From an uncultured Gammaproteobacteria bacterium (lineage in GTDB: Bacteria; Patescibacteriota; Microgenomatia; Levybacterales; UBA12049): a stretch of DNA of 59,305 nt. Shown here in pieces: positions 2,760 to 48,749 of this stretch (position 1 is its first letter; each line of letters begins with the position of its first letter). A program made the translations under genes and the position numbers. Location of the stretch: positions 8,855-68,159 of the forward strand of contig CAZMGC010000001.1 of the NCBI GenBank assembly GCA_964565795.1, given 5' to 3'. A model generated the notes under the pieces. The model worked only from the letters and a program-made list of their open reading frames with translations. It did not search any database and was not told the origin of the DNA.

Positions 2760-2776
2760 ATAAAAGCGCTATTCTC

Positions 2777-2805
2777 AGATTATTATAGTACGTTTCCCAT
2801 GTCAA
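2777..2805 (-). promoter_or_regulatory. Putative promoter TTGACA-17-TAATCT for the 800-aa surface protein gene (17-nt leader)
   Basis: rc of 2800-2805 is TTGACA and rc of 2777-2782 is TAATCT. It shares the 16-nt block TACTATAATAATCTGA with the promoter at 6830-6858. Confidence 0.55.
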
Positions 2806-2828
2806 GACTACTGAGAGTTTATAAAAGT

Positions 2829-3398
2829 TTATGGGATATCAGCGGAGATTGTTTCTTTAAGGATCGATTGATTAAGTCCAGTTGTTGAGACCTGGGAAGT
2901 AGGCAGGAATCCTATGTTTGTAGGCTCTTGACTCGTTTTAGTAAAACTTAAAGTAGCTATAACACCTGTTCCATCTATTGTTTCGTCTCCTGGTTTTATG
3001 GCTATTATATATCTTATTACTCCGTTAGTTGTGTCGATAGTTTTAGTTAATACAGTTGGGTTGCTAAGGAAATTTCCAGGAGTAATGTCTACGTTAGTCA
3101 AAAGTGTAGGTTCAAAAGCTAGTTCTATTTGTGCTCCACTAATTTTGTTCCCATTTGTGTTAATTACGATATCGGTTTCGTATGTGGATTCACTCGTGCT
3201 TCTAATATCTTCTGAGACGGAAAGAGAAGTGTTAGCTTCTGCAATCTGTTGATTATTCCCATTTTTGGAAATAAGATTTAGTCCCTTGGAGGAAAGTAAA
3301 ATAATTATTGGAGCAGCAATTAAAATTATTAATCCGGCGACCAAAAGCCACTTTTTATTAGATTCATTTCTTATTGTATTTGTAGAATTTTTTTCCAT
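2829..3398 (-). CDS. Membrane-anchored cohesin-like protein
   Basis: 189-aa ORF with one N-terminal TM helix (WLLVAGLIILIAAPIIILL). This is followed by a beta-rich domain with cohesin-like signature ISGAQIELAFEPTLLTNVDITPGNF...GVIATLSFTKT. Its start lies 1 nt after the stop of the upstream dockerin-bearing gene. Confidence 0.7.
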   Translation of the reverse strand: MEKNSTNTIRNESNKKWLLVAGLIILIAAPIIILLSSKGLNLISKNGNNQQIAEANTSLSVSEDIRSTSESTYETDIVINTNGNKISGAQIELAFEPTLLTNVDITPGNFLSNPTVLTKTIDTTNGVIRYIIAIKPGDETIDGTGVIATLSFTKTSQEPTNIGFLPTSQVSTTGLNQSILKETISADIP

Positions 3399-3399
3399 A

Positions 3400-6300
3400 T
3401 TATTCAGGTAGAATTACGCCTTGTTGGTTTGCGAATTCTTTAAGGAAAAGTGTGTAATCATCTTCGTTCACAAATCCGTCATCGTTTAGATCTGTGTATT
3501 TTTCATTATTTTCATCTGCGTCGCATGCGGATCTATTCTGTGAGTAAACAGAGCAGGAAAGTAAAAGATTATAATCCATTAAATCGATTCTGTTTTCAGA
3601 GAGGTCTGTGTTATTAACATTTCCTGTTATTAAATAGAAATTATTTGAAGTTAAGTCTGTAACTTGTCCTTGAGTGATTGAGAATGACCCCGGATATTGG
3701 TTAGTTAAATATCCTGGGCCGTCAACATAAATATTATATGAGCCATTAGGAAGATTTTCTACAGATGGGAGGTCATACAGTAATTCAAATTTTTCACTAT
3801 TTTGATTGTATGTAAACGTAATATTCGTTCCTGTGAAGCTAAGAGTATTTGTAATAGTATTATAGATTTTGAAATTTAAACCCCTCCAAATATTAGTAGG
3901 ATTTTTATTTCCGCCAATTGGAATTCTAGGAGTAGATCCAATCCCATCGATTCCAATTCTAAAATTTAAGTATGTTTTTCCAGGAATTGGCGTAATTTGA
4001 TCTTGTACGAGATAAACTGCAACGATTGAGGAAATTTCTGTATTGTTTTCAATAAGCTTAAGAACGGTAATATGTTCACCTGTAGTAGAGTTTGATGGAG
4101 AAGTAATTACCACGTTTACATCTCTTGATTCATTCTTGCTAATATTGCTTAGGTTGTCTTGTGATAGGCTTGCGCTCCATCCAGTTGGTGGAGTAGCCTC
4201 GATAGAAAAGGTTCTACCTGCGCAATCTCCTTGATCAATATTTCTTACTGTCACATTATATGTAACTGCTTCACTAGGATTTCCTGTTTTTGTTTGTGGT
4301 GTGATGCTAAATTCTGGATTGTTTTGAACGCATTCATTTGTTTGATCTCCTGGTACAACATAGGCAATATCTTTGGTTGCAATTATTGTATTATTAGGGT
4401 TTTTAATATTTAAAGTTATTTTTTTAGTGCCTGCAGTTGCATTAGTAGGGGATTTTATTTTAACATTTGTAATTTGCTTATCGCCTTGAGCGAGTTCGAA
4501 TGGACTATTTTTCCCAAAAGTAGCTTCCCAATTGGTATTTGGTAAATTAGCAGTAAGCGATAGTGTTTTTGGTGAGCATTCGCCAGTATCTTTATTTAGT
4601 ATTTCGATACTATAACTTGCTTCCTGTCCTGGATTTGCTTCTTGGGAATCTGGAGTAACTGTAAATTCTGGATCTTTTCTAGTACAGGTTGTTGGTGTGT
4701 CAGTAGGATTAGCCACATTGACAGTATAAGTTGCATTTACTTGAACTTGTGCTGTTGTCTGGCCTTCACGTCTTACTCCCAGTGTAAATGTTTTTGGGCC
4801 CTGTGTAGCTCCATTTGGAGATTTAACCTTAAATGTAGTTGATTTATTTCCGCCATTTTTTGAGATACTGCTTAGCGTGTTGTCAGTAAAACTTGCGGTC
4901 CAATTATCGTTTGGTAATCGTTCTTTTGAAAGGACAAAACTTACAGGATTACATGCTTCACCTTTATCATTGTTAGTAACTTTTACACTGTATTCTCTCT
5001 CATCTCCTGGATTTCCGTTTCTGCTATTTGGCGTTATGTCTAAAGTTGGAGCATTCTTGTCGCAGGTTGGTTGAGGTGTTGTAGATGTTCCGCCTCCAGT
5101 TCCTCCTCCAGACTTGGTCGTTTCGTATGAATCCTGAACAATGTTATTACCTTCATTGGTTTCGGAGATTTTTCCTTCTGAATCTACAAAAGCCACTGCC
5201 TTATATTTTCCAGCTGCTGGTCTTGGCATGCCAGTAAAATGACTTGATAGATCGATCTCTTCATTTGCAGATACGACCTGGGTAACGGTCCATAATTTAA
5301 CTGCGCCTCCATCTCTATTTATAACTCTAACTTTAAAATCACCAGTTATTTGAGTATTTCCGATATTTTTAATCTTTACAGTAGGGTTAGAGTTTCCAGT
5401 GTCTACGCCGCCAGGGAAGTTAAAAGCAGAGATTACTAGATCTTTAGTAGCGCCATTAGCTTGTGTTTTTTTAATACCAAAGTTAACTGTATTATTTGCG
5501 CTGAATGTTTTAGAACTACCATCAACGCTTGCTGTGATAGCATTACCACCTACAAAATCTTGATAATTTAATTTAGTGGCAGTATATCCAGATGGAACTA
5601 TTAATCTTACGTTTACTTGACTTGCAGTAGTGGTTCTTTTTAGATCATATGCAAATCCAGTAAGTGTACTGTTAACCGTACTGTCTGCTTGAACAATGTA
5701 TGGGTCTTTATAGAAGAGTTCAGTGTCTCCTTTTCTTCCGTTTCCATCTTCATCTATAAATACGTATCCAGTAAATGAGAGCGTTTTTTGATTTGCTCTA
5801 GTTTCGCATTTGTTTGATGAATTACAAAATTGACCCGAAGTACAATTTTTTAGATTTGAAGTGGTGCATTGTACGCATTTTCCGATACTGCAAATTCCCG
5901 AAGAGCAAACATCAGTAGCGTTAGGTGTGCAGTCCTGAGGTGTCGTAGCTGTTTCTTTACAAGTAGAGAATCCTGGTCTATCTGTAAATGTTCTAGTTTG
6001 AGTTCCAGCAATTGAGCTACATGCAGATCCATTTCCTTGAGGTCTTCCTGATTTTGGTTCACATTTTCCTAGCTTTACTGCGGTAGTGCAATTAGGTGTA
6101 CTGACACAGGTGTGTGTATTTGTATTACAGGAATTTCCGTTTCCGCAACCTCCGCACGCTAAACTTGTTCCGCCGACTGTAAATGTTCCGCAGTAATTAT
6201 TTTGCCTACAAAGGCTTTGTTTATATGTTGTTAAGTCAGAGCATCTGTCTGTAGTAGGCGCACAATATTTAAATGTGGCATTTGAAGAGCACTGACTATT

Positions 6301-6816
6301 TGATGAACATTTTATGCAGTTGGTTGTAACACTTTCATTGCAGTATGGTTTAATTCCGAAAACAATTTGCTTATGTCCCGCAGTAATATTAGCAGTTTTT
6401 GAGTTATCTCTTTTTGTATCAGACGAAGTAAAATTATAAATATATATAAAGTTTAAATCTCTGTTTGGTGCTGTCAGTGTAATTCGGAAATAATCTTCTC
6501 CAAGTTCGTATAAATCTGGATCATTTACTCGCAAGGTAACAGAAGTATTTAAAAATGAACTAACGCAATTTTCTTGCGAGTCTTTAGAAATCGTTCGAGT
6601 TCCTGATGCATCCGTAATAGTGACTTTAAATGTACCATCATAGCAATGATCCGTATTTGTAGTATTAAAATTTCGATTACCATTATCCATAACAGCACCT
6701 ATGTTTAGATTGTAGCTAGCTGCTTGGGCTTTTCCGATAAAGTTAGCTTGAGAGCCAATTAAAAATAGGAAAGAAAGAGAAAATAAAAAGAATAAAAACT
6801 TTTTCACAGTAAACAT
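3400..6816 (-). CDS. Giant secreted surface protein: Cys-rich module, SdrD-B-like domain, CARDB domain, three NEW3/CARDB-like repeats, conserved C-terminal module with dockerin-like end
   Basis: 1138-aa ORF with signal peptide (FLFFLFSLSFLFLIGSQA). About 36 Cys between residues ~160 and ~345. CARDB-like segment DLVISAFNFPGG..PTVKIKNIGNT...ETNEGNN. Three Cys-bracketed ~120-aa repeats. The C-terminal ~190 aa align with the 800-aa protein, including DLSENRIDLMDYN and DLNDDGFVNEDDYTLFLKEFANQQGVILPE. Confidence 0.85.
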   Translation of the reverse strand: MFTVKKFLFFLFSLSFLFLIGSQANFIGKAQAASYNLNIGAVMDNGNRNFNTTNTDHCYDGTFKVTITDASGTRTISKDSQENCVSSFLNTSVTLRVNDPDLYELGEDYFRITLTAPNRDLNFIYIYNFTSSDTKRDNSKTANITAGHKQIVFGIKPYCNESVTTNCIKCSSNSQCSSNATFKYCAPTTDRCSDLTTYKQSLCRQNNYCGTFTVGGTSLACGGCGNGNSCNTNTHTCVSTPNCTTAVKLGKCEPKSGRPQGNGSACSSIAGTQTRTFTDRPGFSTCKETATTPQDCTPNATDVCSSGICSIGKCVQCTTSNLKNCTSGQFCNSSNKCETRANQKTLSFTGYVFIDEDGNGRKGDTELFYKDPYIVQADSTVNSTLTGFAYDLKRTTTASQVNVRLIVPSGYTATKLNYQDFVGGNAITASVDGSSKTFSANNTVNFGIKKTQANGATKDLVISAFNFPGGVDTGNSNPTVKIKNIGNTQITGDFKVRVINRDGGAVKLWTVTQVVSANEEIDLSSHFTGMPRPAAGKYKAVAFVDSEGKISETNEGNNIVQDSYETTKSGGGTGGGTSTTPQPTCDKNAPTLDITPNSRNGNPGDEREYSVKVTNNDKGEACNPVSFVLSKERLPNDNWTASFTDNTLSSISKNGGNKSTTFKVKSPNGATQGPKTFTLGVRREGQTTAQVQVNATYTVNVANPTDTPTTCTRKDPEFTVTPDSQEANPGQEASYSIEILNKDTGECSPKTLSLTANLPNTNWEATFGKNSPFELAQGDKQITNVKIKSPTNATAGTKKITLNIKNPNNTIIATKDIAYVVPGDQTNECVQNNPEFSITPQTKTGNPSEAVTYNVTVRNIDQGDCAGRTFSIEATPPTGWSASLSQDNLSNISKNESRDVNVVITSPSNSTTGEHITVLKLIENNTEISSIVAVYLVQDQITPIPGKTYLNFRIGIDGIGSTPRIPIGGNKNPTNIWRGLNFKIYNTITNTLSFTGTNITFTYNQNSEKFELLYDLPSVENLPNGSYNIYVDGPGYLTNQYPGSFSITQGQVTDLTSNNFYLITGNVNNTDLSENRIDLMDYNLLLSCSVYSQNRSACDADENNEKYTDLNDDGFVNEDDYTLFLKEFANQQGVILPE

Positions 6817-10193: not shown

Positions 10194-10937
10194 TTATTCT
10201 CCTCCTTTTTTCCAATCGACAGATTTTAGAATTCCTGTAAAAACATCTTCTCCTAAATCTATTTTCATTTCATTAATTTCTTCTTTACTTGGAGTTCTGT
10301 CTACAAAATTTATCTGCCCAATTTCATTTACTATTCCAAGCGGAGTCTGTTCATAAGCTTCTCCCATCTCGAGAACTGATGCTGCTGCGATGCAATCCAC
10401 GATATTTAGAGTTTCCACATGAAGAGGGCGTCCGAAAATATCTGGTTTTCCGATATAGCTTCTAATTGGCTCAAATCCGCACCATGAAAGTCCGACGGCT
10501 GTAACTCCGCGCCTCATAGGTGCCAGTTTGCTATCAGTTACAACCACTCCTAAATTTTTTATCTTATGTTTTTCTCTTAAATATTCCCAGATTTTATTTG
10601 TCGTTTCTGTCAAGTTTTCAGGCCAGAAAATATAGTATCCATTACCATTTGATTCATCAATTCCAGCTGATGCGATTAGAATATTATTTTTAATAGTTAA
10701 AAATACACCGAAGTTTACATATTCCTCAGGTAAATAAAGATCTGCTTCTTTTTTTACCAAGTCCGCTTTATTAATTTTTCCATTGTTTTTGAGAACTCTT
10801 CCCTGGGTAATAGAAATAATTTTCGAGGTAATAACTACGACATCTTTTTCCTGAAGCTTTGGTAATGATTTGTCAAGGATGTCAATAAGTTTATCTGAAA
10901 CTTCTACTTTTTTGGTTTTTATTGGTGTTACTTTCAT
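10194..10937 (-). CDS. CofE-like gamma-glutamyl ligase family protein (F420-0:gamma-glutamyl ligase homologue)
   Basis: 247 aa. VVVITSKIISITQGRV...ASAGIDESNG...VVVTDSKLAPMRRGVTAVGLSW.G...YIGKPDIFGRPL.VE..N..D.IAAA..LEMGE follows the CofE signature. Confidence 0.7.
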   Translation of the reverse strand: MKVTPIKTKKVEVSDKLIDILDKSLPKLQEKDVVVITSKIISITQGRVLKNNGKINKADLVKKEADLYLPEEYVNFGVFLTIKNNILIASAGIDESNGNGYYIFWPENLTETTNKIWEYLREKHKIKNLGVVVTDSKLAPMRRGVTAVGLSWCGFEPIRSYIGKPDIFGRPLHVETLNIVDCIAAASVLEMGEAYEQTPLGIVNEIGQINFVDRTPSKEEINEMKIDLGEDVFTGILKSVDWKKGGE

Positions 10938-11401
10938 GCTGTTTGAATTAAATCAGAAAGACCGTGTTCTTCTAGGAACGCGTGATCAGCTCCGTTTGGA
11001 TTTTCCCCCACAGGCCTTTTTATCCCTGCGATTGTACCATATGAAGGATGAGCAACGGCATCCTCTAATCTTTCTATTACGGCAGTTCCATGATGGGTCG
11101 CGTTATGGGTAAGCCAACTTGCGCCATCTTCAGCGACTAAAACAACTCCTACATGAAATAGTCTAGGGTCTTTATCGGGATTGTCAGTCAGAAAAGCGAT
11201 ATCACCTGTAGCTAATGGTTCATCTGGGGGTACAAATTTTGTGTGTTCTTCATCAACCCAGAGCTCAGCTGAGCGGGGAACATCAAGCATGCTTCTTCCA
11301 AGCGCCTCCACTACAATTCCAGTGTAAAGCTGACAATTCATTCCATCTCCTGGACTTTGTCTTGCAGCTTGTTTGGAAGTATTGCCTGGATGTCGATCCA
11401 A
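10934..11401 (-). CDS. NlpC/P60-like (papain-fold) hydrolase, compositionally atypical; start codon uncertain (TTG in the track)
   Basis: Cys23 (NCQLYTG), GDIAF at 66-70, H83 in FHVGVV and H99 in LTHN give the canonical Cys...GD[IL]xF...HVG...H spacing. The stop overlaps the CofE-like start (ATGA at 10934-10937). The only in-frame ATG is 2 codons before the catalytic Cys, so a non-ATG start or N-terminal decay is implied. Confidence 0.5.
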   Translation of the reverse strand: MDRHPGNTSKQAARQSPGDGMNCQLYTGIVVEALGRSMLDVPRSAELWVDEEHTKFVPPDEPLATGDIAFLTDNPDKDPRLFHVGVVLVAEDGASWLTHNATHHGTAVIERLEDAVAHPSYGTIAGIKRPVGENPNGADHAFLEEHGLSDLIQTA

Positions 11402-17015: not shown

Positions 17016-17043
17016 TTGCAAGCCAAATAAAAAGAATTATAAT
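17016..17043 (+). promoter_or_regulatory. Putative promoter TTGCAA-16-TATAAT, 11 nt before the ATG at 17055
   Basis: TTGCAA at 17016-17021 and TATAAT at 17038-17043. It starts 5 nt after the glyA stop. Confidence 0.55.
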
Positions 17044-17054
17044 TGCAACCGAAT

Positions 17055-17399
17055 ATGGTAAGTGAATATAGAGAATATAGCCGTGACGGGATTGGAAAGA
17101 TCCATAAGCCTAAAAATTTTAGGTACAACAGGCTTCCTGAACGCGTAGCTTCGTTTGTCTCATTTGGCCGACCAGTTCCCCATGTTCCGGAAGTGCCATT
17201 ACATGAAGGTGTAGAAATTCCTCTCCGTTACGACAGGAGCCATCTTGATATAGATCATAGATTGGTGGTTTCTGTCGGAGAAGATAGACCATTACCAATA
17301 AGAGAAGTTGTTATAGTAAGCTTACAGCAGCATGCATGGAGAGAATTTTTTGGTCGAATTCTTCATCAATCAGAAGCCCCGTTGCAAAATTCAGGCTGA
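17055..17399 (+). CDS. Hypothetical protein (114 aa, Arg/Pro/His/Val-rich, compositionally atypical orphan)
   Basis: Uninterrupted 114-codon frame in a region of visibly raised G+C, with its own promoter. No family recognised by eye. Coding status uncertain. Confidence 0.35.
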   Translation: MVSEYREYSRDGIGKIHKPKNFRYNRLPERVASFVSFGRPVPHVPEVPLHEGVEIPLRYDRSHLDIDHRLVVSVGEDRPLPIREVVIVSLQQHAWREFFGRILHQSEAPLQNSG

Positions 17400-20583: not shown

Positions 20584-20976
20584 ATGATAAAGAAGACAGA
20601 AGAGGAGTGGAAGAAAACACTCACTCCCAAACAATACGAAATTCTTAGAGAAAAAGGGACAGAGCCAGCCTTTACTGGAGAATATGTAGATAACCATGAA
20701 AATGGAATGTATACATGTGTGGCATGCGGAAATACTTTGTTTGATTCAGGAACTAAGTTTGATTCGGGTAGTGGTTGGCCAAGTTTTTATGATGTAGCGA
20801 CTAAAGGGAATGTAATTTTAGAAGATGACATGAGCTATGGAATGAAAAGAACTGAAGTAAAATGTGCAAATTGTGGGGGACATTTGGGTCATGTTTTTAC
20901 TGACGGACCAAGGGATAAAACTGGTTTACGATACTGTATTAATTCCTGCGCACTAGATTTTAAGAAGAAAGATTAA
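20584..20976 (+). CDS. msrB: Peptide-methionine (R)-S-oxide reductase
   Basis: [18 protein letters not shown] and [13 protein letters not shown]. Confidence 0.95.
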
Positions 20977-21935
20977 AGACCCATTCCGTTTGAATGGGGA
21001 ATAGTACTGACAGGTTCGATCGAATATCCGAGTCTTCTTGCTTCTTTAGCCCAAGCTTTAAATGCTGCTCGATCAACTGGTGTGAAATGGAAGATTGCAC
21101 GATCTCCTGGTTTTAGTGGTAATAAATTGTCAATTGCTTCTTCGACAGATGCTCCATTCCATCCCATTGTGTCTTTGTTCCACATGTCTAATCCCAATTT
21201 TAATTGTTTAGCCGCTGCTACAATTTCTGTGTCTCTTTGTCCTGGTAAAGTTCCTGCTCCATAGGGAGTTCCAAGAGTAAGTTCTTCGATAGGTCTTCTT
21301 AATACTGATCTTAATGCGTTACTCTGTGGTATAACGTGATCAATAACTTCATTTTTTGTAAATGGAGTTAAGTCTGAATGATCATCTGTGTGATTATGCC
21401 ATCTTATTCGTCCTGTAGCTTGACCACGTCTATAATCATCAGGGTATGCCAGTACTGATTGTCCCACAGGATAAACATCCACTGTAGTTCCTAAGTCTTC
21501 AAACATGGAAAAAGCTGCTGCGACTTCTGCCTGATCCCATCCATCATCCCATCTTGCGCGAACGACTTTTCTTTTTGTTCTTTCCTTGTAAATAATTGTT
21601 CCAGGTCCAAACGAAGTTACTCCTCCATTTTCTTCTGCTGTTGATCTTACATCAGGTAATCGAGAAGGATGAGTCCGTTCAAGTCTAGTAAGTTTTCTTC
21701 TAACATCAGAAAGTCTTTGATCTGCTGTAAGTGATTCTTGATCTACAATTGGTTCTCTTTGTGCACCTAGTGCTGTGTGGGGAAGCCATAAATTATGTGC
21801 AACAGCAACTGCAGCTACAGCCGCTCCTGTTACAGCACCTCTTCTTAAAAGTGTTCTTCTACTTAACTGTGCGGATTGACCCGCTGATTGCTCAGCTGAT
21901 ACTGGTCCCGGTTGTGGTGTTTCGTGTCCTGCCAT
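20973..21935 (-). CDS. Polysaccharide deacetylase (NodB/CE4-like) with twin-arginine-type signal peptide, compositionally atypical
   Basis: [23 protein letters not shown] resembles a Tat signal. NodB-like motifs RWDDGW (TFDDG), [11 protein letters not shown] and [16 protein letters not shown] (H[ST]xxH). 28 Arg against 11 Lys by hand count. Overlaps the msrB stop by 4 nt. Confidence 0.6.
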
Positions 21936-22028: not shown

Positions 22029-22778
22029 GTGGATAGATTATCACTTCTGGGACTTAATCATTATAAAAATAAGGACAATATTTTGGTTGTAGAATCTCCA
22101 ACGGCGCAATCTGCAAATGAGACCATCACAGAAATTCTCGAGAAATACTCAGATTTAAAAACTGCGCTTTTTCTTTCAGGAGGAAATACACCTAAAAAAC
22201 TTTATGAACTTATCGCTTCACAGAAAAAGTTAAAAGTTGGTGCTGCGGGACAAGTAGATGAAAGATTTGGAGAGAAAAATCATAAGAAAAGTAATGAGCT
22301 AATTATAAAAGAGACTGGGCTTTTGGATTTTTTTGAGAGTTCAAATTTAAGATTTTACCCTATGATTGAAAACGGTGCAGATATTGAAACAGCCACGAGA
22401 AATTATGATGAAGCACTTAGATTTATTCTCAAGTATTTTCCAAAAAGTGTGGGAATAATGGGTTTGGGTATCGACGGGCATACCGCAGGAATTCCAGCAA
22501 TACCTGAAATTTCCAAAAAAATGATTGAGGATGGAAGTTCATTAGTTTCTTTTTATGAAGCTCCTGAATATGGTCCAAGAATTACTATGAATTTCCATGC
22601 GATAAGTGTTTTGGACTTGATAATTGTTTTAGTTTTGGGTCAAGAGAAAAGGGAAATCCTAAATCAAATGTTTAAATTTGAAGGTACTCAGGAAGAGATA
22701 GAGAAGTTTCCAGCTAAATTTTATTTAAAACCCGAAATAGCCTCAAAAACCATCATCATTACGGATCAGATAGTTTAG
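22029..22778 (+). CDS. pgl: 6-phosphogluconolactonase (GTG start)
   Basis: LSGGNTPKKLYELIA and GLGIDGHTAG are typical of the 6PGL/NagB family. The neighbourhood contains zwf and gnd. Confidence 0.75.
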   Translation: MDRLSLLGLNHYKNKDNILVVESPTAQSANETITEILEKYSDLKTALFLSGGNTPKKLYELIASQKKLKVGAAGQVDERFGEKNHKKSNELIIKETGLLDFFESSNLRFYPMIENGADIETATRNYDEALRFILKYFPKSVGIMGLGIDGHTAGIPAIPEISKKMIEDGSSLVSFYEAPEYGPRITMNFHAISVLDLIIVLVLGQEKREILNQMFKFEGTQEEIEKFPAKFYLKPEIASKTIIITDQIV

Positions 22779-22781
22779 ATT

Positions 22782-23582
22782 TTAAGCAGGGGTATTTTCC
22801 GGAGCACTATTAATTTCATCGTGGATAGCAGCTCTGTCAGGAAAAATCGATCTCATGGCTTCTTCCAGATCTCTAATTGGGGCTCGACCTGTATTTACTA
22901 AAGTACCATTTACTAAATCTTGGACTGTAATCCTTGCAGGACGAGCTGGTGTTCCGTCTTCTGATTCTTTGGTGGCAGGGGAAGCTATAATTAATCTAAT
23001 AGTTTCTTTATTTCTCATTTCCCAGATCGTTACATAGTCCTCGTCTGGTTTTACTTCGATTGCCCAGCGATCATTGTGAGCACCTGTCATCTGATGGAGC
23101 TCGGCTCTTGTGATCTCCGCAGCATCTTTTACAGCTTCTTCAGTTGCTTTCTGAGCTTGCAATTCGTACTCAGCAACTAACTCAGTGATTTTAGCTACAT
23201 CTGCATTTTCATCCCAGCTTCTTTCTCCTGTCCTTGGGTGTAAATGGATTCCTCCAACTCTGGTGCCAAACATCTGAAGAACGTCAGCTCGAATTGATTC
23301 AATTGGTAAGTCTCCTTCAGCTTCTGATTGAAGAGTTGCGGTAATACTAATATCTTCACCAAGCCCCAGTAGCTCTTTTTGCACTTGTAAAGTCCAATAG
23401 GTACCCGGTTCTGTAGATATTCTCAAAGCTGAATCTGGGTTTCCTGTAAGGTAAGTGGATTCCGCTACTACAAATCCCATAGACCTATTAAGTGTTGCTA
23501 TGTTTGCTTCGCGATCTGTTACGCGTGCTGGAATGGCGTCTTTTGGTGTAGCTCCACCGCCTGGGGTAATATCTGGTAGCAT
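22782..23582 (-). CDS. Hypothetical protein (266 aa), atypical composition; third gene of a three-gene cluster
   Basis: Long ORF in a raised-GC segment with its own promoter. Central coiled-coil-like stretch (VAKITELVAEYELQAQKATEEAVKDAAE). No signal peptide. Pro-rich tail ending SAPENTPA. Confidence 0.6.
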   Translation of the reverse strand: MLPDITPGGGATPKDAIPARVTDREANIATLNRSMGFVVAESTYLTGNPDSALRISTEPGTYWTLQVQKELLGLGEDISITATLQSEAEGDLPIESIRADVLQMFGTRVGGIHLHPRTGERSWDENADVAKITELVAEYELQAQKATEEAVKDAAEITRAELHQMTGAHNDRWAIEVKPDEDYVTIWEMRNKETIRLIIASPATKESEDGTPARPARITVQDLVNGTLVNTGRAPIRDLEEAMRSIFPDRAAIHDEINSAPENTPA

Positions 23583-23591
23583 AATGTGGGT

Positions 23592-23620
23592 AATATACTA
23601 GTTTAAGCCTATAATGTCAA
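23592..23620 (-). promoter_or_regulatory. Putative promoter TTGACA-17-TATATT, 9 nt before the ATG at 23582
   Basis: rc of 23615-23620 is TTGACA and rc of 23592-23597 is TATATT. Confidence 0.6.
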
Positions 23621-23626
23621 GGCTAC

Positions 23627-24157
23627 TTATTCATTTACTGTAGCTTGAGGAGGCTCAACTGTTGGTTCAGTATTTGCGATTCTATCAATTAAAGTTCTTA
23701 ATCCTGACCTTGCAGAGATTATTCCATCTGCATCATCTGGGCTCATGTTGGGATTTGTGTTTGAAGCATATCGGTCAGAAGTTTCCTCAATTTCTTGTGG
23801 ATATTCTACGTCAAGAAAATTTTTAAATCCGAACGCTGCTGTGGGGCCCGTTACTGGTTCTTCGATTGTTGGTTGAGTGGTTTTGGCATATGGACCTGGC
23901 TCTGGGAGGATTCCCAATTCAAATCTACTAAATTGTGATCCAGGAGTCCTAACCACTAAACTCCATGCATCTCCTTCAGGAGTAGTAGTGAAGTCCACAA
24001 AGCTACCGTCAAGGTTTCCAATATGAACTTGCCGAGCGCCTATTAATCCGCGAGCCTGAAGATATCTATCTTTTAAATCATTAACTGTAGCAGGGGTTAA
24101 GGTTTCTGAAGATGATTCTGATCCGCCAATTCCTGGATTTCTGTCTGGTGCTGCCAT
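23627..24157 (-). CDS. Hypothetical protein (176 aa), atypical composition; second gene of the cluster
   Basis: ORF with its own promoter. No signal peptide or TM helix. Tail EPTVEPPQATVNE. Confidence 0.6.
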   Translation of the reverse strand: MAAPDRNPGIGGSESSSETLTPATVNDLKDRYLQARGLIGARQVHIGNLDGSFVDFTTTPEGDAWSLVVRTPGSQFSRFELGILPEPGPYAKTTQPTIEEPVTGPTAAFGFKNFLDVEYPQEIEETSDRYASNTNPNMSPDDADGIISARSGLRTLIDRIANTEPTVEPPQATVNE

Positions 24158-24165
24158 AAGTTTGT

Positions 24166-24194
24166 AATATACTATTTGAGATTTAGCCTGTCAA
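24166..24194 (-). promoter_or_regulatory. Putative promoter TTGACA-17-TATATT, 8 nt before the ATG at 24157
   Basis: rc of 24189-24194 is TTGACA, immediately after the stop of the upstream gene at 24195-24197. rc of 24166-24171 is TATATT. Confidence 0.6.
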
Positions 24195-24590
24195 TTAGGT
24201 ATTTTCAGGTTGTGGAGGAGTTAGAATTCTTCTCGCTTCGTCTAAAGCAGTTTGAGTAGATGTTCCAGGATTTTGAAAACCAGCTGGATAAACCACCTCA
24301 AAAGATGGATCGATCATGTCTTTACCGCTATAAAAAGTTCTAATAATGAATCTTCTACCATCTTGCGAAGTTCCCGGGAAGGTGACTCTAGTGAGATCTG
24401 GCCCTTTTGTTCCGTCAAACACAAATCCATCTCTTCCAACATACATTTGATCTCTTTTATCCGGTTCTATTCCAGAGCGATTAGCAACTAAATCATTAAT
24501 TTCTGCCACAGCAGATCTCCTCGAAGCACCGTCGAGTCTTGGTTCTTGAGGCGCTAATCCTCTTTTTTCTGCAATAGTTGGGCCTGGCAT
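24195..24590 (-). CDS. Hypothetical protein (131 aa from the ATG), atypical composition; first gene of the cluster
   Basis: The track start 24599 is a TTG. The ATG at 24590 sits 8 nt downstream of a TATATT box, so MPGPTIAEKRG... is the preferred N-terminus. Tail TPPQPENT. Confidence 0.6.
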   Translation of the reverse strand: MPGPTIAEKRGLAPQEPRLDGASRRSAVAEINDLVANRSGIEPDKRDQMYVGRDGFVFDGTKGPDLTRVTFPGTSQDGRRFIIRTFYSGKDMIDPSFEVVYPAGFQNPGTSTQTALDEARRILTPPQPENT

Positions 24591-24598
24591 AAGTGCCA

Positions 24599-24627
24599 AA
24601 TATACTCTTTGAAACTTTTTGTGTCAA
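24599..24627 (-). promoter_or_regulatory. Putative promoter TTGACA-17-TATATT, 8 nt before the ATG at 24590
   Basis: rc of 24622-24627 is TTGACA and rc of 24599-24604 is TATATT. Confidence 0.6.
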
Positions 24628-24637
24628 CTACTATAAT
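24609..24637 (+). promoter_or_regulatory. Putative zwf promoter TTGAAA-17-TATAAT, 8 nt before the ATG (leaderless); interleaved with the divergent promoter
   Basis: TTGAAA at 24609-24614, TATAAT at 24632-24637, ATG at 24646. Confidence 0.6.
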
Positions 24638-24645
24638 CTTTAGAT

Positions 24646-26085
24646 ATGGATTCGCCAGAAGTATTTTCACAAATGCAAAGCCCCTTTGCGATGATTATAT
24701 TTGGTGCCACAGGAGATCTTTCGCATCACAAATTAATTCCCGGACTTCTTTCACTTTTTAATAAAAAAATGCTTCCAGAGGAATTTTTTATAATTGGTTA
24801 TTCTAGGCGCGCTTATTCAGATGTCGATTTTAGAAATTCTTTTGCCTCTCTAGGAAAACAAGAAGGGTGGGATGAATTTTCTAAACATCTTTATTACCAA
24901 AAAGGAACTTTTGAAAAAAAAGAAGGATATGAAAATTTAATTGAACGCCTTAATGAATTAGATAAAAAAATAGGCGCGTGCATTACTCGGTTTTTTTATC
25001 TAGCAACACCACCAGAGCACTACTCTGATATTTTGGACAAATTGGTTAGCACTAAGCTTTCTGAAGGATGTGGACAGGGTAGTAACAAGTGGACCCGGGT
25101 GGTTATAGAAAAACCTTTTGGCAAAGATGCCGAAACAGCGAAAATGCTTGAAGATAAACTCTCAAGTATTTTTGACGAAAAACAAATTTTTAGAGTAGAT
25201 CATTATTTAGGAAAAGAAACAGTCCAAAATTTACTTGCGTTCAGGTTTGCCAACAGTATCTTCGAGCCTATGTGGAGTTCTAAGTTTATAGAGCATGTTC
25301 AAATTACCTGGGCAGAAAAAGAAGGAATTGAAAATCGAGGAAATTTTTTTGATGGAGTAGGAATGCTTAGAGATGTGGTTCAAAATCACATGATGCAACT
25401 TATTTCTGCAGTAGCGATGGAGCAGCCCAGTAGTTTTACAAAAGAAAATGTGAGAAATGAAAGAGCCAAAGTTGCTGCTTCAGTAAAGCTTGCAGACAAA
25501 AACGTAGTGAGAGGTCAATATGATGACTATCAAAATGAAGAAGAGGTAGAGAAGGGATCTGATACAGAAACTTATGTTGCCATGAAATTATTTGTTAACA
25601 CTCCGCGTTTTTCTGGTGTACCATTTTATATTAGAGCAGGAAAACGAATGGAAAAAGAAGTCATAACTATTTCAGTGGTTTTTTATCAAACATGTCACAT
25701 TTTATTTAAAGAATATGGTTGTCCAGAAATTGGAAATGTTTTGACTTTTAGAATTCAACCTGACGAGGGAATTACTCTTCGTTTGATAGCCAAACAGCCA
25801 GGTGCGAAATTAAAATTGGGAAGTGTAAATATGAAATTTAATTATAAAGATGACTTTGGAACATTGGGACTTGATGCATATGAAAAAATTTTACTCGATA
25901 TTTTCAGTGGGGATCAAATTTTGTTCTCTCGATCGGACGAAATTCAAAATTCATGGAAGTTACTAGACAATATTTTAAAAACATGGGAGAATGAGGAAAA
26001 TATTTCCAAGTATATTTCTGGGTCCTGGGGTCCAGAAGAAGGAAATGCTTTAATTGAGCGGGACGGAAAAAAATGGATAAAATAA
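24646..26085 (+). CDS. zwf: Glucose-6-phosphate 1-dehydrogenase
   Basis: IFGATGDLSHHKL.P.L, the active-site peptide RVDHYLGKE, and NH..Q. Confidence 0.95.
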   Translation: MDSPEVFSQMQSPFAMIIFGATGDLSHHKLIPGLLSLFNKKMLPEEFFIIGYSRRAYSDVDFRNSFASLGKQEGWDEFSKHLYYQKGTFEKKEGYENLIERLNELDKKIGACITRFFYLATPPEHYSDILDKLVSTKLSEGCGQGSNKWTRVVIEKPFGKDAETAKMLEDKLSSIFDEKQIFRVDHYLGKETVQNLLAFRFANSIFEPMWSSKFIEHVQITWAEKEGIENRGNFFDGVGMLRDVVQNHMMQLISAVAMEQPSSFTKENVRNERAKVAASVKLADKNVVRGQYDDYQNEEEVEKGSDTETYVAMKLFVNTPRFSGVPFYIRAGKRMEKEVITISVVFYQTCHILFKEYGCPEIGNVLTFRIQPDEGITLRLIAKQPGAKLKLGSVNMKFNYKDDFGTLGLDAYEKILLDIFSGDQILFSRSDEIQNSWKLLDNILKTWENEENISKYISGSWGPEEGNALIERDGKKWIK

Positions 26086-26182: not shown

Positions 26183-26530
26183 ATGATTAGTTTTGAGGAC
26201 TTCAAAAAAATAGAAATAAGAATGGGAAAGATTACGGCTTGTGAGAAAGTAGAGGGCGCTGATAAACTTTTACGTTTGCAGGTTGACTTCGGCCCTGCAG
26301 AGCAGGGTTCTGAAGAAAGAATGACAAGGCAAATTATTAGTGGAATTGCCGAGAGCTATTCCCCAGAAGAATTGGTCGGGAAGACATTACCCTTCGTCGT
26401 AAATCTAGAATATAGAAAATTTAAGGGAGAAGAATCACAGGGAATGCTGGTCGCAACTGGAACTGGAAGTGAAAATGTAGTTTTACTTGAACCAAATAAG
26501 GAAATTGAAGCAGGCGCCGAAGTAGTTTAG
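26183..26530 (+). CDS. tRNA-binding domain protein (CsaA/Trbp111/EMAP-II-like)
   Basis: F.K.EIRMGKI...EKVEGADKLLRLQVDFG....RQIISGIAE.Y.PEELVGK..PFVVNL..RK..G..SQGML.A. Confidence 0.8.
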   Translation: MISFEDFKKIEIRMGKITACEKVEGADKLLRLQVDFGPAEQGSEERMTRQIISGIAESYSPEELVGKTLPFVVNLEYRKFKGEESQGMLVATGTGSENVVLLEPNKEIEAGAEVV

Positions 26531-27288
26531 GCCTCAAATTCAGAAAGATCATTTGCACCATAAGTTTCAGAAAATATTGTCTTTGCTTTTTCTACTGCTT
26601 CATTTCGACTTTCTAAAGTTGTATAGATATGTGCGCCAAAATGAGTCAGTATGAGTTTTTTAACATTTTCTTCTTTTGCTAATGTGGCAGCCTGAATGGC
26701 ATCGAAATGTCCCCACTCAGTTTCTGTATTATCTTTTGCAGCACATTCGCAAATAAAAATATCTGAATTATTTGCTAACTTTCTTGCTTGATCTGTAAAT
26801 CCACAGTCACCAGTGTATGAGATAATTTTTCCTTCTAATTCAAATCTATATCCGTGGTCTCTATATGCGTGGTGTTGTTCAATGGCTTGTGCTTTGAATG
26901 GAATACTTTCACCTTCTTCAGAAAGTTCATGGAGTCTAATTTCGGTTTTTAAATTATAAATATTATCAGGTCTTGGTTTGTATCCTACAGTAAAAGGAGG
27001 ATTTACTAAAGTCTCAAAATCTTTTGTTCTCCCAGTTCCAGCATAGACATCAATTCCTTGTTTGAAGTCAAATTTATTTAAAATATGGAGGCCTGATGTG
27101 TGGTCTAAATGAAAATGAGTTATGAACATAGAGATAGGCTTATCTTCTTTAATAAATTGATCAAGTTTATAAATTCCATTACCAGCATCAAGAACTAAAT
27201 AATGGTCTTTGGTGTCAATTAAAATTGATGGAGTGTCGCCAGTGGGTGAAGAGTACCAGCCATTAGTCCCTAAGAATGTAATTTTCAT
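26527..27288 (-). CDS. MBL-fold metallo-hydrolase (RNase Z/BN-like)
   Basis: MKITFLGT.G, the HxHxDH motif THFHLDHTSGL, and a C-terminal LTHF. Confidence 0.8.
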   Translation of the reverse strand: MKITFLGTNGWYSSPTGDTPSILIDTKDHYLVLDAGNGIYKLDQFIKEDKPISMFITHFHLDHTSGLHILNKFDFKQGIDVYAGTGRTKDFETLVNPPFTVGYKPRPDNIYNLKTEIRLHELSEEGESIPFKAQAIEQHHAYRDHGYRFELEGKIISYTGDCGFTDQARKLANNSDIFICECAAKDNTETEWGHFDAIQAATLAKEENVKKLILTHFGAHIYTTLESRNEAVEKAKTIFSETYGANDLSEFEA

Positions 27289-35499: not shown

Positions 35500-36098
35500 A
35501 AGTACCCAAGTCTATCCAAAATCTAATCGAGTCGTTCGAGAAGCTTCCGGGCGTTGGTCCGAAAACGGCCCAGCGTTTGACCTTTTATCTTCTTCATGTT
35601 CCTCAGTACGAGCTCGATAAATTTGCCTCGAGTTTAACTTCCTTAAAAACGGGGACAACCATTTGCTCTAATTGTTTTACTGTAGGAGAAAGTGATCCAT
35701 GCGAAATTTGTGAAGACACTAATCGTGATCAAGGACTGATTTGTGTGGTTGAAGAGCCGCTTGACGTTTTGGCATTGGAGCGCGGAGGAAAATACAAGGG
35801 TGTATATCATGTTTTACATGGAAGAATTGATCCTTTAAATAACATAGGTCCGGATGAAATTTACATTGATAAATTACTTGAAAGAATTAAAAAATCACAA
35901 ATTTCAGAAATTATTTTAGCGACCAATCCGACTATGGAGGGAGAAGCTACTGCAATGTACATAACTAAGCAAATAAAATCTCATAATCCAGACATTAAGT
36001 TATCTAGAATTGGGCGTGGTTTGCCAATAGGCGCGGATTTAGAGTATGCTGATGAAGTAACCCTCCAAAGAGCTTTAGAGGGAAGAAGTGAATTATGA
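35496..36098 (+). CDS. recR: Recombination protein RecR
   Basis: L...F.KLPGVGPKTAQRL.F.LL, Cys4 zinc finger C..C........C.IC, and a Toprim segment. Confidence 0.95.
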   Translation: MKVPKSIQNLIESFEKLPGVGPKTAQRLTFYLLHVPQYELDKFASSLTSLKTGTTICSNCFTVGESDPCEICEDTNRDQGLICVVEEPLDVLALERGGKYKGVYHVLHGRIDPLNNIGPDEIYIDKLLERIKKSQISEIILATNPTMEGEATAMYITKQIKSHNPDIKLSRIGRGLPIGADLEYADEVTLQRALEGRSEL

Positions 36099-36838
36099 AT
36101 CAGCTCGGAAGTTTTGAGGACGTAATTGAAAAAGGGCAGACCACAGTAAAAAATGCAGCTAAGGCTGCGCAAGCTGGAGCCACGAACTTTGCAAATACCG
36201 CAACAGGCCAAGTTTCAAATAATACTCCAAGTGATCACGGAACTGGCGAAGCAAATAATGCTAATGCATCAGGACAGCAGATGTCAGATGATGATGCAAA
36301 AAAATTTCTTCAGGATTTATATGGTGTAAAAAGTCCTACCCAAGATCCGCATGCACAAAACCCCACTCAACCCACTCAAGCGAATAATGCCTCTGCAAAA
36401 AAACCAGCCCAAAATCAGCAAACAGTAAAAGCCGCATTAGGTTTGGAGCGCGCTAAAAAGCCTCAAGAGAAAGTGCCAACTCCAAAGGAAACTATTAAAG
36501 CCGCATTAGGAATTCCAGGAGAAAAGCCAAAGACAGAAACTCCAACTACTAGAGAAACCGTGGTAACTGCAATGGGTTTGCCAAATGCATTAAGTGATAC
36601 GAAAACCCCAGAGGAGCAGGCAAAAATTGAAGCTTTAAGAGGAGAGCTTCATGGTGCATATTATAGGGATTTAACAAAACCACAACAGCAACAAGAGGAG
36701 TCAGTAGTCGAAAAATTGGAGAGGGAAGATCAGGAGAAAAAGCTCGCAGATCTTGAAGAATCTAAGAAGAAACCACCACCTCTCCCCGCAACTACAAAGC
36801 AGGGAACAGGTGAAAATGTAGTTGGAGTTTCGGGATAG
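36095..36838 (+). CDS. Low-complexity Gln/Pro/Thr/Lys-rich protein with three ~22-aa internal repeats
   Basis: Repeats TVKAALGLERAKKPQEKVPTPKE, TIKAALGIPGEKPKTETPTTRE and TVVTAMGLPNALSDTKTPEE. ATGA overlap with the recR stop. Confidence 0.55.
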   Translation: MNQLGSFEDVIEKGQTTVKNAAKAAQAGATNFANTATGQVSNNTPSDHGTGEANNANASGQQMSDDDAKKFLQDLYGVKSPTQDPHAQNPTQPTQANNASAKKPAQNQQTVKAALGLERAKKPQEKVPTPKETIKAALGIPGEKPKTETPTTRETVVTAMGLPNALSDTKTPEEQAKIEALRGELHGAYYRDLTKPQQQQEESVVEKLEREDQEKKLADLEESKKKPPPLPATTKQGTGENVVGVSG

Positions 36839-36890: not shown

Positions 36891-38198
36891 ATGAGAATTT
36901 ATAATTCACTAACTCGTAGTGTTGAGGATTTTAAGCCCCAGATAGACACAGTAACAATATACACCTGCGGGCCTACTACTTATGACTTCATGCACATCGG
37001 AAATCTTAGAACTTTTCTTATGGCGGATCTTTTTGAAAGAGCCTTGAGATTTAACGGTTTGAATCTTAAGACGGTTCAAAACATAACTGATATTGATGAT
37101 AAGATTATTCGAAGAGCACAGGAGCGGGGAATAGGAATTTCAGAGCTTTCACATGAATTTGAAGAGTTTTTCTTTAGTGATATAAAAAGTTTGAACATAT
37201 TACCTAAAGACATGGTAACGAAAGCTACAGCTTATGTTCAAAAAATGGAAGACTACATCGCAGATCTTATAAAAAAAGGATTTGCTTATGTCGAGAAAGA
37301 TGGATCTGTTTATTTTGATATTTCTAAATTTTCAGACTACGGAAAATTATCAAGAATTGAAGCCGCAAATCTAAAATCGGGCACAAGAGTTTTATCTGAT
37401 GATTATTCTAAAGATGATGTTCAGGATTTCGCACTGTGGAAAGCAGAACCAAAAGACGCCGTAGGTTACGCTTCACAGTGGGGATGGGGAAGACCTGGCT
37501 GGCATATAGAGTGCTCTGTCATGAGTCAGGAAAATTTAGGCGAAACTCTAGATGTCCACATGGGTGGAATTGATTTGCTTTTTCCTCATCACGAAAATGA
37601 AATTGCCCAATCAGAAGCTAAAACCGGAAAACAATTTGTAAATTATTGGATACACGGTGCATTTATATTAGTGGATGGAAAAAAGATGAGTAAATCTTTA
37701 GGAAACTTTTATAAATTAAAAGACATTATTGATAAAGGAATTGACCCTCTAGCTTTAAGATATTTATATTTACAAACTCACTACAGACAGGAAATGAATT
37801 TTACATGGGAAGCTTTGGAGGCCGCACAAACAGCTTTAAATAAATTGCGAAGGAATTATTCCGAAGCAAAATCAGGTAACGAAAAACTCCCATCAGGATT
37901 TTCTGAAGCAATTAATGATGATTTAAATATGCCACGTGCTTTAGGAGTTGTCTGGGAAAATATTGGGAGCTTGTCAAAAGTATCACTTGATAAAATTGAT
38001 TCTGTTTTAGGTTTGAATTTATCCCAAAAAGAAGAAGAAATTGAAATTCCATCAGATATTAAAGTGTTGGTAGATAAAAGGGAGGAAGCAAGAAAATCAG
38101 GAGATTATGAGAATGCAGACAAGATTCGTAATGAGGTTGAAAGCAAAGGATTTGTTATTGAAGATTCTAAGGGTAGAATAAGGATTAGAAAAGCTTAA
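36891..38198 (+). CDS. cysS: Cysteinyl-tRNA synthetase
   Basis: YTCGPT.YD..HIGN.R (HIGH motif), WHIECS, HHENE and KMSKSLGN. Confidence 0.95.
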   Translation: MRIYNSLTRSVEDFKPQIDTVTIYTCGPTTYDFMHIGNLRTFLMADLFERALRFNGLNLKTVQNITDIDDKIIRRAQERGIGISELSHEFEEFFFSDIKSLNILPKDMVTKATAYVQKMEDYIADLIKKGFAYVEKDGSVYFDISKFSDYGKLSRIEAANLKSGTRVLSDDYSKDDVQDFALWKAEPKDAVGYASQWGWGRPGWHIECSVMSQENLGETLDVHMGGIDLLFPHHENEIAQSEAKTGKQFVNYWIHGAFILVDGKKMSKSLGNFYKLKDIIDKGIDPLALRYLYLQTHYRQEMNFTWEALEAAQTALNKLRRNYSEAKSGNEKLPSGFSEAINDDLNMPRALGVVWENIGSLSKVSLDKIDSVLGLNLSQKEEEIEIPSDIKVLVDKREEARKSGDYENADKIRNEVESKGFVIEDSKGRIRIRKA

Positions 38199-38524
38199 AC
38201 TTTTCCTTCTCCAGGCTGACGGGGAGCTTCTGGTTGTGCTGGTTTTGGAGCCTGATCGCTAAGAGATCCTACTTGATGAGGAGCTAAACCTCTTATTTCA
38301 TCGACTACAGCTTCTGTTTCATGTTCACCTAACCTATTTACGTCATCAACTCCAATAATTTCTCCCATTGTTCTGTTTGGTCTATTTCCCGTAACTCTTC
38401 TCAGAATTCTTGTTGCTAATGATGGGGCTTGTTGTTCGGTAAAAGGAGCTCCAGTAGAATCAAGTCGTCCATGTTTTTCATCTGTTACTTTTTCTAAATC
38501 AATATCTGGATCTAGGTTAGTCAT
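38195..38524 (-). CDS. Hypothetical protein (109 aa), atypical composition with a Pro-rich tail
   Basis: ORF in a raised-GC segment with its own promoter. Overlaps the cysS stop by 4 nt. Tail APKPAQPEAPRQPGEGKV. Confidence 0.5.
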   Translation of the reverse strand: MTNLDPDIDLEKVTDEKHGRLDSTGAPFTEQQAPSLATRILRRVTGNRPNRTMGEIIGVDDVNRLGEHETEAVVDEIRGLAPHQVGSLSDQAPKPAQPEAPRQPGEGKV

Positions 38525-46787: not shown

Positions 46788-47299
46788 AAAAAGATGTTGC
46801 CATAGTTATGGGTTCTGATTCAGATTTGCCAATTATGAAAGAAGCAGCAGAAATTCTTGAGGCATTTAATATTTCTTTCGAACTCACAATCGTTTCAGCA
46901 CATAGAACTCCAGAAAGATTATTTAATTTCGCAAAATCAGCAGAAAAAAAAGGTTTTAAAGTAATTATTGCAGGTGCGGGAGGATCAGCGCATTTACCAG
47001 GAATGCTAGCATCTTTGACACCTCTTCCAGTTATAGGTGTTCCAGTTAAAGGAAGATCGTTTGAAGGGTTAGATTCATTAATGTCTATCGTTCAAATGCC
47101 ACCTGGTATTCCAGTAGCGACAGTAGCAGTAAATGGTGCAAAAAACGCAGGAATTTTAGCTGCTAGTATAATTGGATCTAGTAATAAAAAGATATTAAAT
47201 AAAGTTTCTGATTATAAAAAAGCCTTAGAAGAAGAAGTGTCTGAGAAATTTACAAAACTTGAAAAAATTGGATATAAAAAATATTTAGATGAAAAATAA
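46784..47299 (+). CDS. purE: N5-CAIR mutase (PurE class I)
   Basis: V.IVMGS.SD...M..A...L......E..IVSAHRTP and [20 protein letters not shown]. Confidence 0.95.
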
Positions 47300-48746: not shown

Positions 48747-48749
48747 CTG

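Follow-up and report, generated by a model that had tools for sequence, protein, structure and literature searches.

One of the closest described counterparts of the genes reported here is opcA, which encodes an assembly factor or activator of glucose-6-phosphate dehydrogenase (G6PD). It is found beside the G6PD gene zwf in actinobacteria and cyanobacteria and, in actinobacterial operons, between zwf and pgl, the gene for 6-phosphogluconolactonase. We analysed a 59-kb stretch of DNA (59,305 nt of contig CAZMGC010000001.1; "the window" below means this whole stretch) in which the space between pgl and zwf is filled by three small genes, given the working names gA, gB and gC. Their relatives are found in Levybacteria, ultra-small bacteria of the Candidate Phyla Radiation (CPR). 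Like opcA, these genes lie between or next to zwf and pgl and appear to encode non-enzymatic proteins. They differ from it in lacking any sequence or fold similarity to OpcA, in lying on the opposite strand, in varying in number and kind, and in evolving fast.

Two other comparisons are useful. Leaderless genes with sigma-70-type promoters have been mapped in Mycobacterium, Streptomyces and Deinococcus and, as in the zwf-pgl slot, their -10 box lies a few nucleotides before the start codon with no Shine-Dalgarno (SD) sequence. The slot differs in that a near-identical promoter is repeated on several consecutive short genes; its leaderless character is read here from sequence alone. The -10-to-ATG gap in the slot (7-10 nt) is also slightly longer than that of strict leaderless starts, usually about 6 nt. 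The slot further resembles variable genomic islands or hotspots in its fixed position, changing content among close relatives, rapid divergence and lack of known families, but has native codon usage, no mobility genes and the same promoter signature on every gene. The reading we favour, with a probability of roughly 0.55, is that this is a lineage-specific variable slot of Levybacteria, made up of self-contained cassettes of one promoter and one gene that would be translated from leaderless mRNAs and whose products would act in a complex.

Promoters and layout of the zwf-pgl slot

Three minus-strand open reading frames (ORFs) of 131, 176 and 266 aa had been proposed between pgl and zwf in a preliminary description of this DNA, and this is borne out by their coordinates and by the Pfam assignments of the flanking genes (Table 1). 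Each ORF has its own promoter, with the identical hexamers, spacing and 8-9 nt distance to the ATG that had been reported. An exact TTGACA-N17-TATATT sequence occurs nowhere else in the window. With up to one mismatch allowed, the window scan gave 6 matches compared to 0.71 expected, a number reached in none of 100 shuffled sequences. All three sites match the consensus at 11 of 12 positions (-35 TTGACA-like, -10 TATAAT-like) with a 17-bp spacer; no GGAG-like sequence is present upstream of the genes, nor any SD sequence before gB or gC. The promoters were also said to follow directly on the previous stop codon; this is true of gB and gC, but not of gA, whose promoter sits in the divergent gap.

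Table 1. Positions of the slot genes, their modules, the flanking genes and the promoters in the window
Feature	Coordinates	Strand	Description and evidence
gA	24195..24590	-	131 aa from ATG, ORF; 134 aa if started at a TTG 9 nt upstream
gB	23627..24157	-	176 aa, ORF
gC	22782..23582	-	266 aa, ORF
gC N-half, residues 1-124	23211..23582	-	AlphaFold2 model, alignment, BLASTP with P0033, profile search
gC C-half, residues 125-266	22782..23210	-	AlphaFold2 model; tblastn of P0030-P0032 onto the window, 2e-18 to 1e-30
pgl (6-phosphogluconolactonase)	22029..22778	+	Pfam PF01182 (Glucosamine_iso), 1.2e-24; slot flank, convergent with gC
zwf (glucose-6-phosphate dehydrogenase)	24646..26085	+	Pfam PF00479 and PF02781 (G6PD_N, G6PD_C); slot flank, divergent from gA
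gA promoter, TTGACA-17-TATATT	24627..24599	-	8 nt before ATG; in the divergent gap shared with zwf
gB promoter, TTGACA-17-TATATT	24194..24166	-	8 nt before ATG; TTGACA abuts the gA stop codon (TAA)
gC promoter, TTGACA-17-TATATT	23620..23592	-	9 nt before ATG; 6 nt after the gB TAA
zwf promoter, TTGAAA-17-TATAAT	24609..24637	+	8 nt before ATG (24646)

The provision of one promoter per gene is kept in every relative examined. The gA promoter is conserved in six related loci (L001, L003, L005, L008, L015 and L021), the core of the gB promoter is identical in L008 and L009, and the gC promoter is conserved in all relatives, its -35 hexamer containing the gA stop codon (TGA) in those that lack gB. 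Slot promoters were compared from at least 8 genomes, and all 23 distinct copies follow the pattern TTGAC[A/G/T]-N16-G-TATATT, one of them having TATTAT, so that G-TATATT is found in 22 of the 23. They lie 7-10 nt from the ATG whatever the encoded protein, and no exact copy of the motif was seen away from slot genes in the flanking loci (up to 12.8 kb each). The -10 box is TATATT, not the consensus TATAAT. Since this non-consensus sequence is invariant while the spacers vary, the data point to selection on the exact promoter sequence rather than to recent copying. The promoter signature is more conserved than the genes it drives.

Consecutive slot genes are 33-44 nt apart with no overlap of start and stop codons, and inspection of the sequence across gA-gC revealed no terminator-like site between them. 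At the other end of the slot, the gC stop codon lies 3 nt from that of the convergent pgl gene. No terminator-like hairpin was seen at this junction, where the predicted RNA fold was no better than those of shuffled sequences (z-score 0.42), and slot transcription probably runs antisense into pgl. No Rfam family was found anywhere in the window.

At the zwf end, a stretch of 39 bp (24599..24637) accommodates both the gA and the zwf promoter in interleaved form. With the -35 box of each in the spacer of the other, competition between them for RNA polymerase is probable. The same interleaving of the first slot promoter with that of zwf can be read in L001, L003, L005, L015 and L021. One could imagine from this that the DNA layout matters more than the proteins, with strong promoters serving as a transcriptional-interference device to tune zwf and pgl expression. 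Two polymerases could hardly bind together to the same 39 bp, nothing resembling a terminator follows the gC stop codon so close to that of pgl, and it is the promoter that is best conserved. However, the coding sequences are under clear purifying selection (see below), their products give confident folded models and invariant residues are kept over 47-100% identity. We find this explanation very doubtful; the proteins themselves being selected, interference would be at most a side effect.

The short distance between promoter and ATG is not special to the cluster. In the window, -10 boxes concentrate 6-9 nt before start codons (14 of 59 genes, vs. about 1 per offset elsewhere), and an SD-like sequence is found in 7 of the 59 genes (e.g. 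34316, 34594, 40316 and 45170). Leaderless starts thus look like the rule in this genome, in a layout that zwf and many first genes in the window share with the slot. What is distinctive is the run of consecutive short genes that each have such a promoter, with no SD sequence, overlap or terminator-like site. In the absence of SD sequences or translational coupling, ribosomes would load on 5′-terminal AUGs and each slot gene would need its own transcription start. The simplest explanation for one promoter per gene would therefore be the leaderless translation habit itself. Two large genes elsewhere in the window (357..6816, minus strand) are organised differently: they encode probable surface proteins of 800 aa (VWA and SdrD_B domains) and 1138 aa (CARDB and NPCBM_assoc domains) and, unlike the slot genes, have a TTGACA/TATAAT promoter followed by a leader of ~20 nt.

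Slot content and evolution in relatives

The zwf-pgl slot is occupied by 1-3 genes in every related contig recovered, down to about 62% pgl identity. Loci L001-L007 carry gA and gC, with L006 and L007 being incomplete upstream and showing only gene fragments before gC, while L008 and L009 (the closest relative) carry gA, gB and gC. L010 has a gB-like gene of 174 aa (40% identity, tblastn 7e-26) and a gene for the 205-aa protein P0033. In L015-L017, genes of 205 and 145 aa accompany a stand-alone gC C-half of 128 aa; in L018-L020, a C-half of 121 aa is paired with a 170-aa gene, and in L021 a 119-aa C-half occurs alone. L023, which was found via pgl, has a different, convergent orphan ORF after pgl. 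All the other loci were found through the slot proteins themselves, so that the linkage to zwf and pgl is in part an ascertainment effect. A metagenome scan with pgl, meant to detect adjacent pgl and zwf genes, returned 2 loci only, its patterns being too degenerate.

These data do not agree with the initial idea that the cluster had been inserted into the locus. Since every related contig recovered carries genes of this kind at this place, the cluster does not appear to be a recent insertion that splits pgl from zwf. The same comparison marks gB alone as an added gene, confined to this genome and the relative closest to it, and shows that gC joins two modules which other genomes encode separately.

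No relative recovered lacks a slot gene between zwf and pgl, although the neighbouring genes change (a deacetylase gene present or absent, a metallo-beta-lactamase-fold gene or an HD-domain gene). This constancy would fit with slot proteins being accessory or regulatory partners of G6PD and/or 6-phosphogluconolactonase, in other words functional analogues of OpcA. The interleaving of the first slot promoter with that of zwf, in all loci read, is also consistent with such a role. However, OpcA domains (which we take to be OpcA_G6PD_assem and OpcA_G6PD_C) were detected neither in gA, gB or gC at E≤1 nor in the 16 gC relatives at E≤10, and Foldseek searches with the gC and gA models gave no G6PD- or OpcA-like match. 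The slot genes run opposite to both neighbours, diverging from zwf and converging on pgl. They also number between one and three, belong to varying families and change 3-4 times faster than zwf and pgl, which would be unusual for obligate partners of conserved enzymes, and the linkage owes something to how the loci were found. We therefore think an OpcA-like function distinctly unlikely.

Homologs of the slot proteins are confined to a restricted group of contigs; those with a name belong to metagenome-assembled genomes of Candidatus Levybacteria or Levyibacteriota. There are 16 homologs of gC (47-100% identity to the window protein, with the invariant residues kept over that range), 10 of gA (61-100%, all on Levybacteria-type contigs) and 2 of gB (87-100%), in addition to the more distant L010 gene. 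The ratio of non-synonymous to synonymous substitution rates (dN/dS) relative to orthologs was 0.09-0.27 for slot genes (0.09-0.26 for gA and 0.24-0.27 for gB), compared to 0.04-0.11 for pgl and zwf. Relative to L005, zwf is 95% identical, gA 56% and gC 70%. These values indicate that the slot genes are real and under clear purifying selection, and that their products evolve about 3-4 times faster than those of pgl and zwf. The description of these genes as orphans is upheld by the family and fold searches (see below), with the addition that they are conserved.

The GC content of the slot genes (0.42-0.44) exceeds that of the genome (about 0.35). Recent horizontal transfer was ruled out as the cause, since GC at third codon positions (GC3, 0.23-0.28) matches the genome mean of 0.247 and only GC at first and second positions (GC1 and GC2) is raised. 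The increase in GC1 and GC2 is explained by an unusual amino-acid composition: G+A+R+P account for 31-37% of residues, F/Y/I/N/K are scarce, Cys is absent and the isoelectric point (pI) is 4.4-5.5. By these measures, the slot genes are native.

Other genes in the window have a similar composition. A polysaccharide deacetylase with a twin-arginine translocation (TAT) signal (20973..21935, minus strand) is G/A/R/P-rich and F/Y/I/N/K-poor like the slot proteins, and has its own TTGACA-17-TAAACT promoter. Deacetylase genes are missing from L010 and L021; L003 and L023 have two each, one of those in L003 being a 712-aa form. Further ORFs without a Pfam match, but with raised GC1/GC2 and G/A/R/P-rich products, are found at 10934..11401 (minus strand), 17043..17399 and 36095..36838 (both plus strand); a 118-aa ORF among them is conserved between the SHMT gene and rpsB in relatives. 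At 38195..38524 (minus strand), an acidic orphan of 109 aa, unmatched in Pfam and likewise of this unusual composition, has a TTGTCA-17-TATATT sequence 11 nt before its ATG, and showed no sequence similarity to any of the slot proteins.

Another small slot close to the pentose-phosphate genes, between a tRNA-binding gene and gnd, is likewise variable. In the window, as in L003 and L008, this position is taken by the metallo-beta-lactamase-fold gene (26527..27288, minus strand), relatives of which carry an anti-Pycsar Apyc1 family tag. The HD-domain gene is found there in L001 (3094..3762), L005 (3085..3753) and L021 (2525..3193).

Protein modules and searches for known families

AlphaFold2 (AF2) models were obtained for gA (predicted local distance difference test, pLDDT, 81.5; predicted template modelling score, pTM, 0.74) and gC (pLDDT 79.5, pTM 0.71). 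In both, the N-terminus (about 20 residues) and the tail are disordered. The gA protein (pI 5.5) forms a single module, with a helix (residues 21-39), five strands (49-101) and a second helix (113-123) before a disordered, Pro-rich tail ending in PPQPENT. The gC protein has two halves. The N-half consists of a disordered conserved N-terminus (MxPDITPGGGAT), a helix (19-43) and six strands (53-122), and the C-half of a long helix (125-162), six strands (167-229) and terminal helices (234-259). The first type of module occurs separately as P0033 in L010 (BLASTP vs. gC, 2e-9), and the second as the stand-alone 119-128-aa proteins P0030-P0032 of other Levybacteria. A near-invariant loop of the C-module, DGTPARPARITVQDL, is the most conserved feature; it is kept in the stand-alone versions and is the likeliest functional site. 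The gB protein (pI 4.4) has an NPxxxPDDADG motif.

Pro-rich tails and a shared PENT motif are present as originally described. The PENT tails of gC (22782..22810) and gA (24195..24215), both on the minus strand, are encoded by nearly the same DNA (CCGGAAAATACC vs. CCTGAAAATACC), and the gA stretch sits just upstream of the -35 box of the gB promoter. The PENT tail may be in part promoter-upstream sequence or a duplication junction rather than a matter of protein function.

The three proteins had been suggested to form a small family of paralogs, on the basis of an N-terminal pattern recognised by eye. The pattern is present, but has statistical support for gB and gC only, and there through an intermediate. 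Direct BLASTP comparisons gave E≥0.23 (0.23 for gB vs. gC; ≥0.37 for gA vs. either), and hhalign comparisons among gA, gB, gC-N and gC-C profiles gave E≥0.016, none of which is significant. The lowest values were those of gB vs. the gC N-half (E=0.016-0.026), which are colinear from residue 1 to about 68. The gB-like 174-aa protein of L010 matches P0033 (BLASTP 6e-6), with the first 16 residues in common (MATD[K/R]T.PGTGTP), and gB and P0033 share the NPxxxPDDADG motif (8e-4). Given the hhalign colinearity, the L010 intermediate and the common PDDADG motif, the weight of evidence favours the N-terminal ~70 aa of gB being a distant paralog of the gC N-module.

The gA protein, on the other hand, could not be linked to gB or gC by BLASTP or hhalign (E≥0.16 in the latter case, once mis-called N-terminal extensions had been removed). 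A 94% probability hhalign match between gA and gC was rejected, as it aligns only the mis-predicted extensions of P0011 (a gC relative) and P0023 (a gA relative), where the sequence ..CLD..NFKEYI.. is a translation of the shared promoter DNA. In the AF2 models, gA does resemble each half of gC in how its elements succeed one another (a helix, an antiparallel meander of 5-6 strands and a helix), but the resemblance is one of order only.

Scans of gA, gB, gC and the stand-alone modules against Pfam, NCBIfam, PADLOC and PHROGs gave nothing above cut-offs. Matches to CYTH (E=0.029) and RelE (E=0.0035) were dropped because they did not recur in relatives. A PDB sequence-profile search returned nothing for gA, and a match of gC to uS13 (E=0.008) was treated as chance. 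The structure search for a known fold likewise gave no significant match: with the gC and gA models, no Foldseek match to the PDB had E≤0.001 (the best being 9.5e-3), and query-normalised template modelling (TM) scores were at most ~0.3 and mostly below 0.25. Seven matches of gC in BFVD did have E≤0.001, but these were to uncharacterised phage proteins with very poor superpositions (query-normalised TM 0.11-0.25) and were judged uninformative.

A profile search of 1.84 billion representative proteins with the gC family gave 8 matches. Two of these, P0034 (PD40 repeats) and P0035 (PPC repeats), match via a short repeated motif of the type RITVQDL / GT..PARI. P0034 was rejected as spurious; P0035 provides a weak lead, with the C-half of gC aligned to a PPC-domain repeat at an hhalign probability of 57%. 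The gB profile aligned over 63 residues to 2di7_A, an Ig domain of the filamin type, with a borderline E=0.001. No Ig-like structure was found by Foldseek with the gC model and there was no Pfam match to Ig or PPC. Lastly, 7 of 19 C-module proteins (6 of the 16 gC relatives, and P0030) have matches to DUF6894 (PF21834), a small bacterial domain for which we know of no function. Like the gC C-module, DUF6894 has a helix followed by a beta-hairpin motif, but all matches were under the Pfam cut-off (best E=0.02, 15.5 vs. 24.1 bits) and covered only about 35 residues.

The RelE match bears on a toxin-antitoxin or anti-phage defence module as an explanation for the slot. It is a sub-threshold hit to RelE/StbE (TIGR02385, 17.8 bits vs. 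a cut-off of 27.9) over gC residues 127-198, and variable content at a fixed site is also reminiscent of a defence island. However, there was no PADLOC match at E≤1 and no RelE/ParE-fold match by Foldseek, the genes have separate promoters rather than forming one autoregulated operon, all the proteins are acidic, and a scan of viral contigs revealed no relatives of the slot proteins. A defence function thus seems extremely improbable.

A further explanation, which takes up the non-classical export suggested in the preliminary description, is that the slot proteins serve in host interaction outside the cell or at its surface, which they would reach without the help of an N-terminal signal peptide. 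Fast evolution and presence/absence variation would be in keeping with this, as would the conserved disordered N-terminal motif and Pro-rich tails. The Cys-free, G/A/R/P-rich composition is also that of the TAT-exported deacetylase and not of most cytoplasmic proteins of the window, although this is a correlation only. The borderline beta-sandwich resemblances (filamin-type Ig and PPC) are of a kind common in extracellular proteins, but are below the level of proof and were not confirmed as an Ig-like domain by Foldseek with the gC model. The lack of a signal peptide or transmembrane helix noted at the outset was confirmed with the deacetylase as control. The highest 19-residue Kyte-Doolittle mean was 0.26-0.63 in gA, gB and gC, compared to 1.47 in the deacetylase, and the top 10-residue hydropathy within the first 35 aa was ≤0.29; no signal peptide, transmembrane segment, twin-arginine motif or TAT_signal Pfam match was present in any of the three. 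Secretion-system genes are also absent from the window. We therefore consider export rather unlikely.

One other locus in the window deserves mention. Many CPR genomes lack nucleotide synthesis, making the presence of a de novo purine biosynthesis cluster notable (45654..55675, plus strand; PurK-like ATP-grasp, PurF, PurD and PurL-type FGAM synthase). Within this cluster, a 485-aa protein combines a NUDIX domain with SAICAR synthetase (47289..48746).

A cassette slot and its possible role

In the reading that we favour, the slot has a fixed place between zwf and pgl, where expression cassettes follow one another in tandem, each a single small gene with a near-consensus sigma-70-type promoter (TTGACA, 17 bp, G-TATATT) 7-10 nt before its ATG. 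Transcripts would begin at the start codon or within ~3 nt of it, giving leaderless mRNAs with one start per gene. Cassettes would be gained, lost, split and fused over time. Their products are predicted to be small, acidic, soluble alpha+beta proteins; the quality of the promoters suggests that they would be made at high levels, and the identical promoters and mode of initiation that they would be made in roughly equal amounts. Fusion and splitting of the modules, together with the identical promoters, would be consistent with the modules binding each other in a hetero-oligomeric binding complex rather than acting as enzymes. Nothing suggests catalysis, as the proteins are small, lack cofactor motifs and resemble no known enzyme fold. 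On account of the fast evolution, changing gene content and composition like that of exported proteins, an interface under rapid change (cell envelope, host or phage) seems to us a likelier place of action than core sugar metabolism.

Several points weigh against this proposal. Promoter strength and leaderless status are deduced from the DNA sequence, and a -10-to-ATG gap of 8-9 nt could leave a leader of 1-3 nt. Complex formation is argued from fusion/split logic and the identical promoters; the C-half occurs alone in L021, so a hetero-complex cannot be obligatory. With no signal peptide or transmembrane segment, an extracellular role would need an unrecognised export route, and a metabolic role would be another way to account for the strict linkage to zwf and pgl. 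The common origin of all the cassettes is unproven, since the gA, 145/170-aa and 205-aa types are unlinked by sequence.

A bolder version would be a new modular system in which interchangeable modules (gA, gB/gC-N, gC-C and others), driven by a shared promoter signature (TTGACA-N16-G-TATATT) and made in matched amounts, form a complex. This complex would either control the oxidative pentose-phosphate enzymes in a novel manner or, released without a signal peptide, act where symbiont and host meet, and the invariant non-consensus -10 box would be the mark of a small dedicated regulon. We see this as a long shot. Much of the apparent oddity of the locus, such as its leaderless promoters and higher GC, is explained by the habits of the genome and the composition of the proteins. 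Leaderless promoters and variable slots of orphan genes are known kinds of thing; this lineage-specific locus has an unusual and strictly conserved expression architecture, and encodes proteins without recognisable relatives.

If the cassette reading is correct, the slot would provide a natural example of a multi-gene locus in a leaderless-translating genome that is organised as one promoter per gene rather than as an operon. Its abundant, fast-evolving proteins without a recognisable fold would be candidates for a part in host interaction or metabolic control in Levybacteria, and a search of CPR genomes for the promoter signature could bring up other genes of this expression class. These genomes are rich in unannotated genes with few handles on which of them matter, and the zwf-pgl slot offers one such handle.

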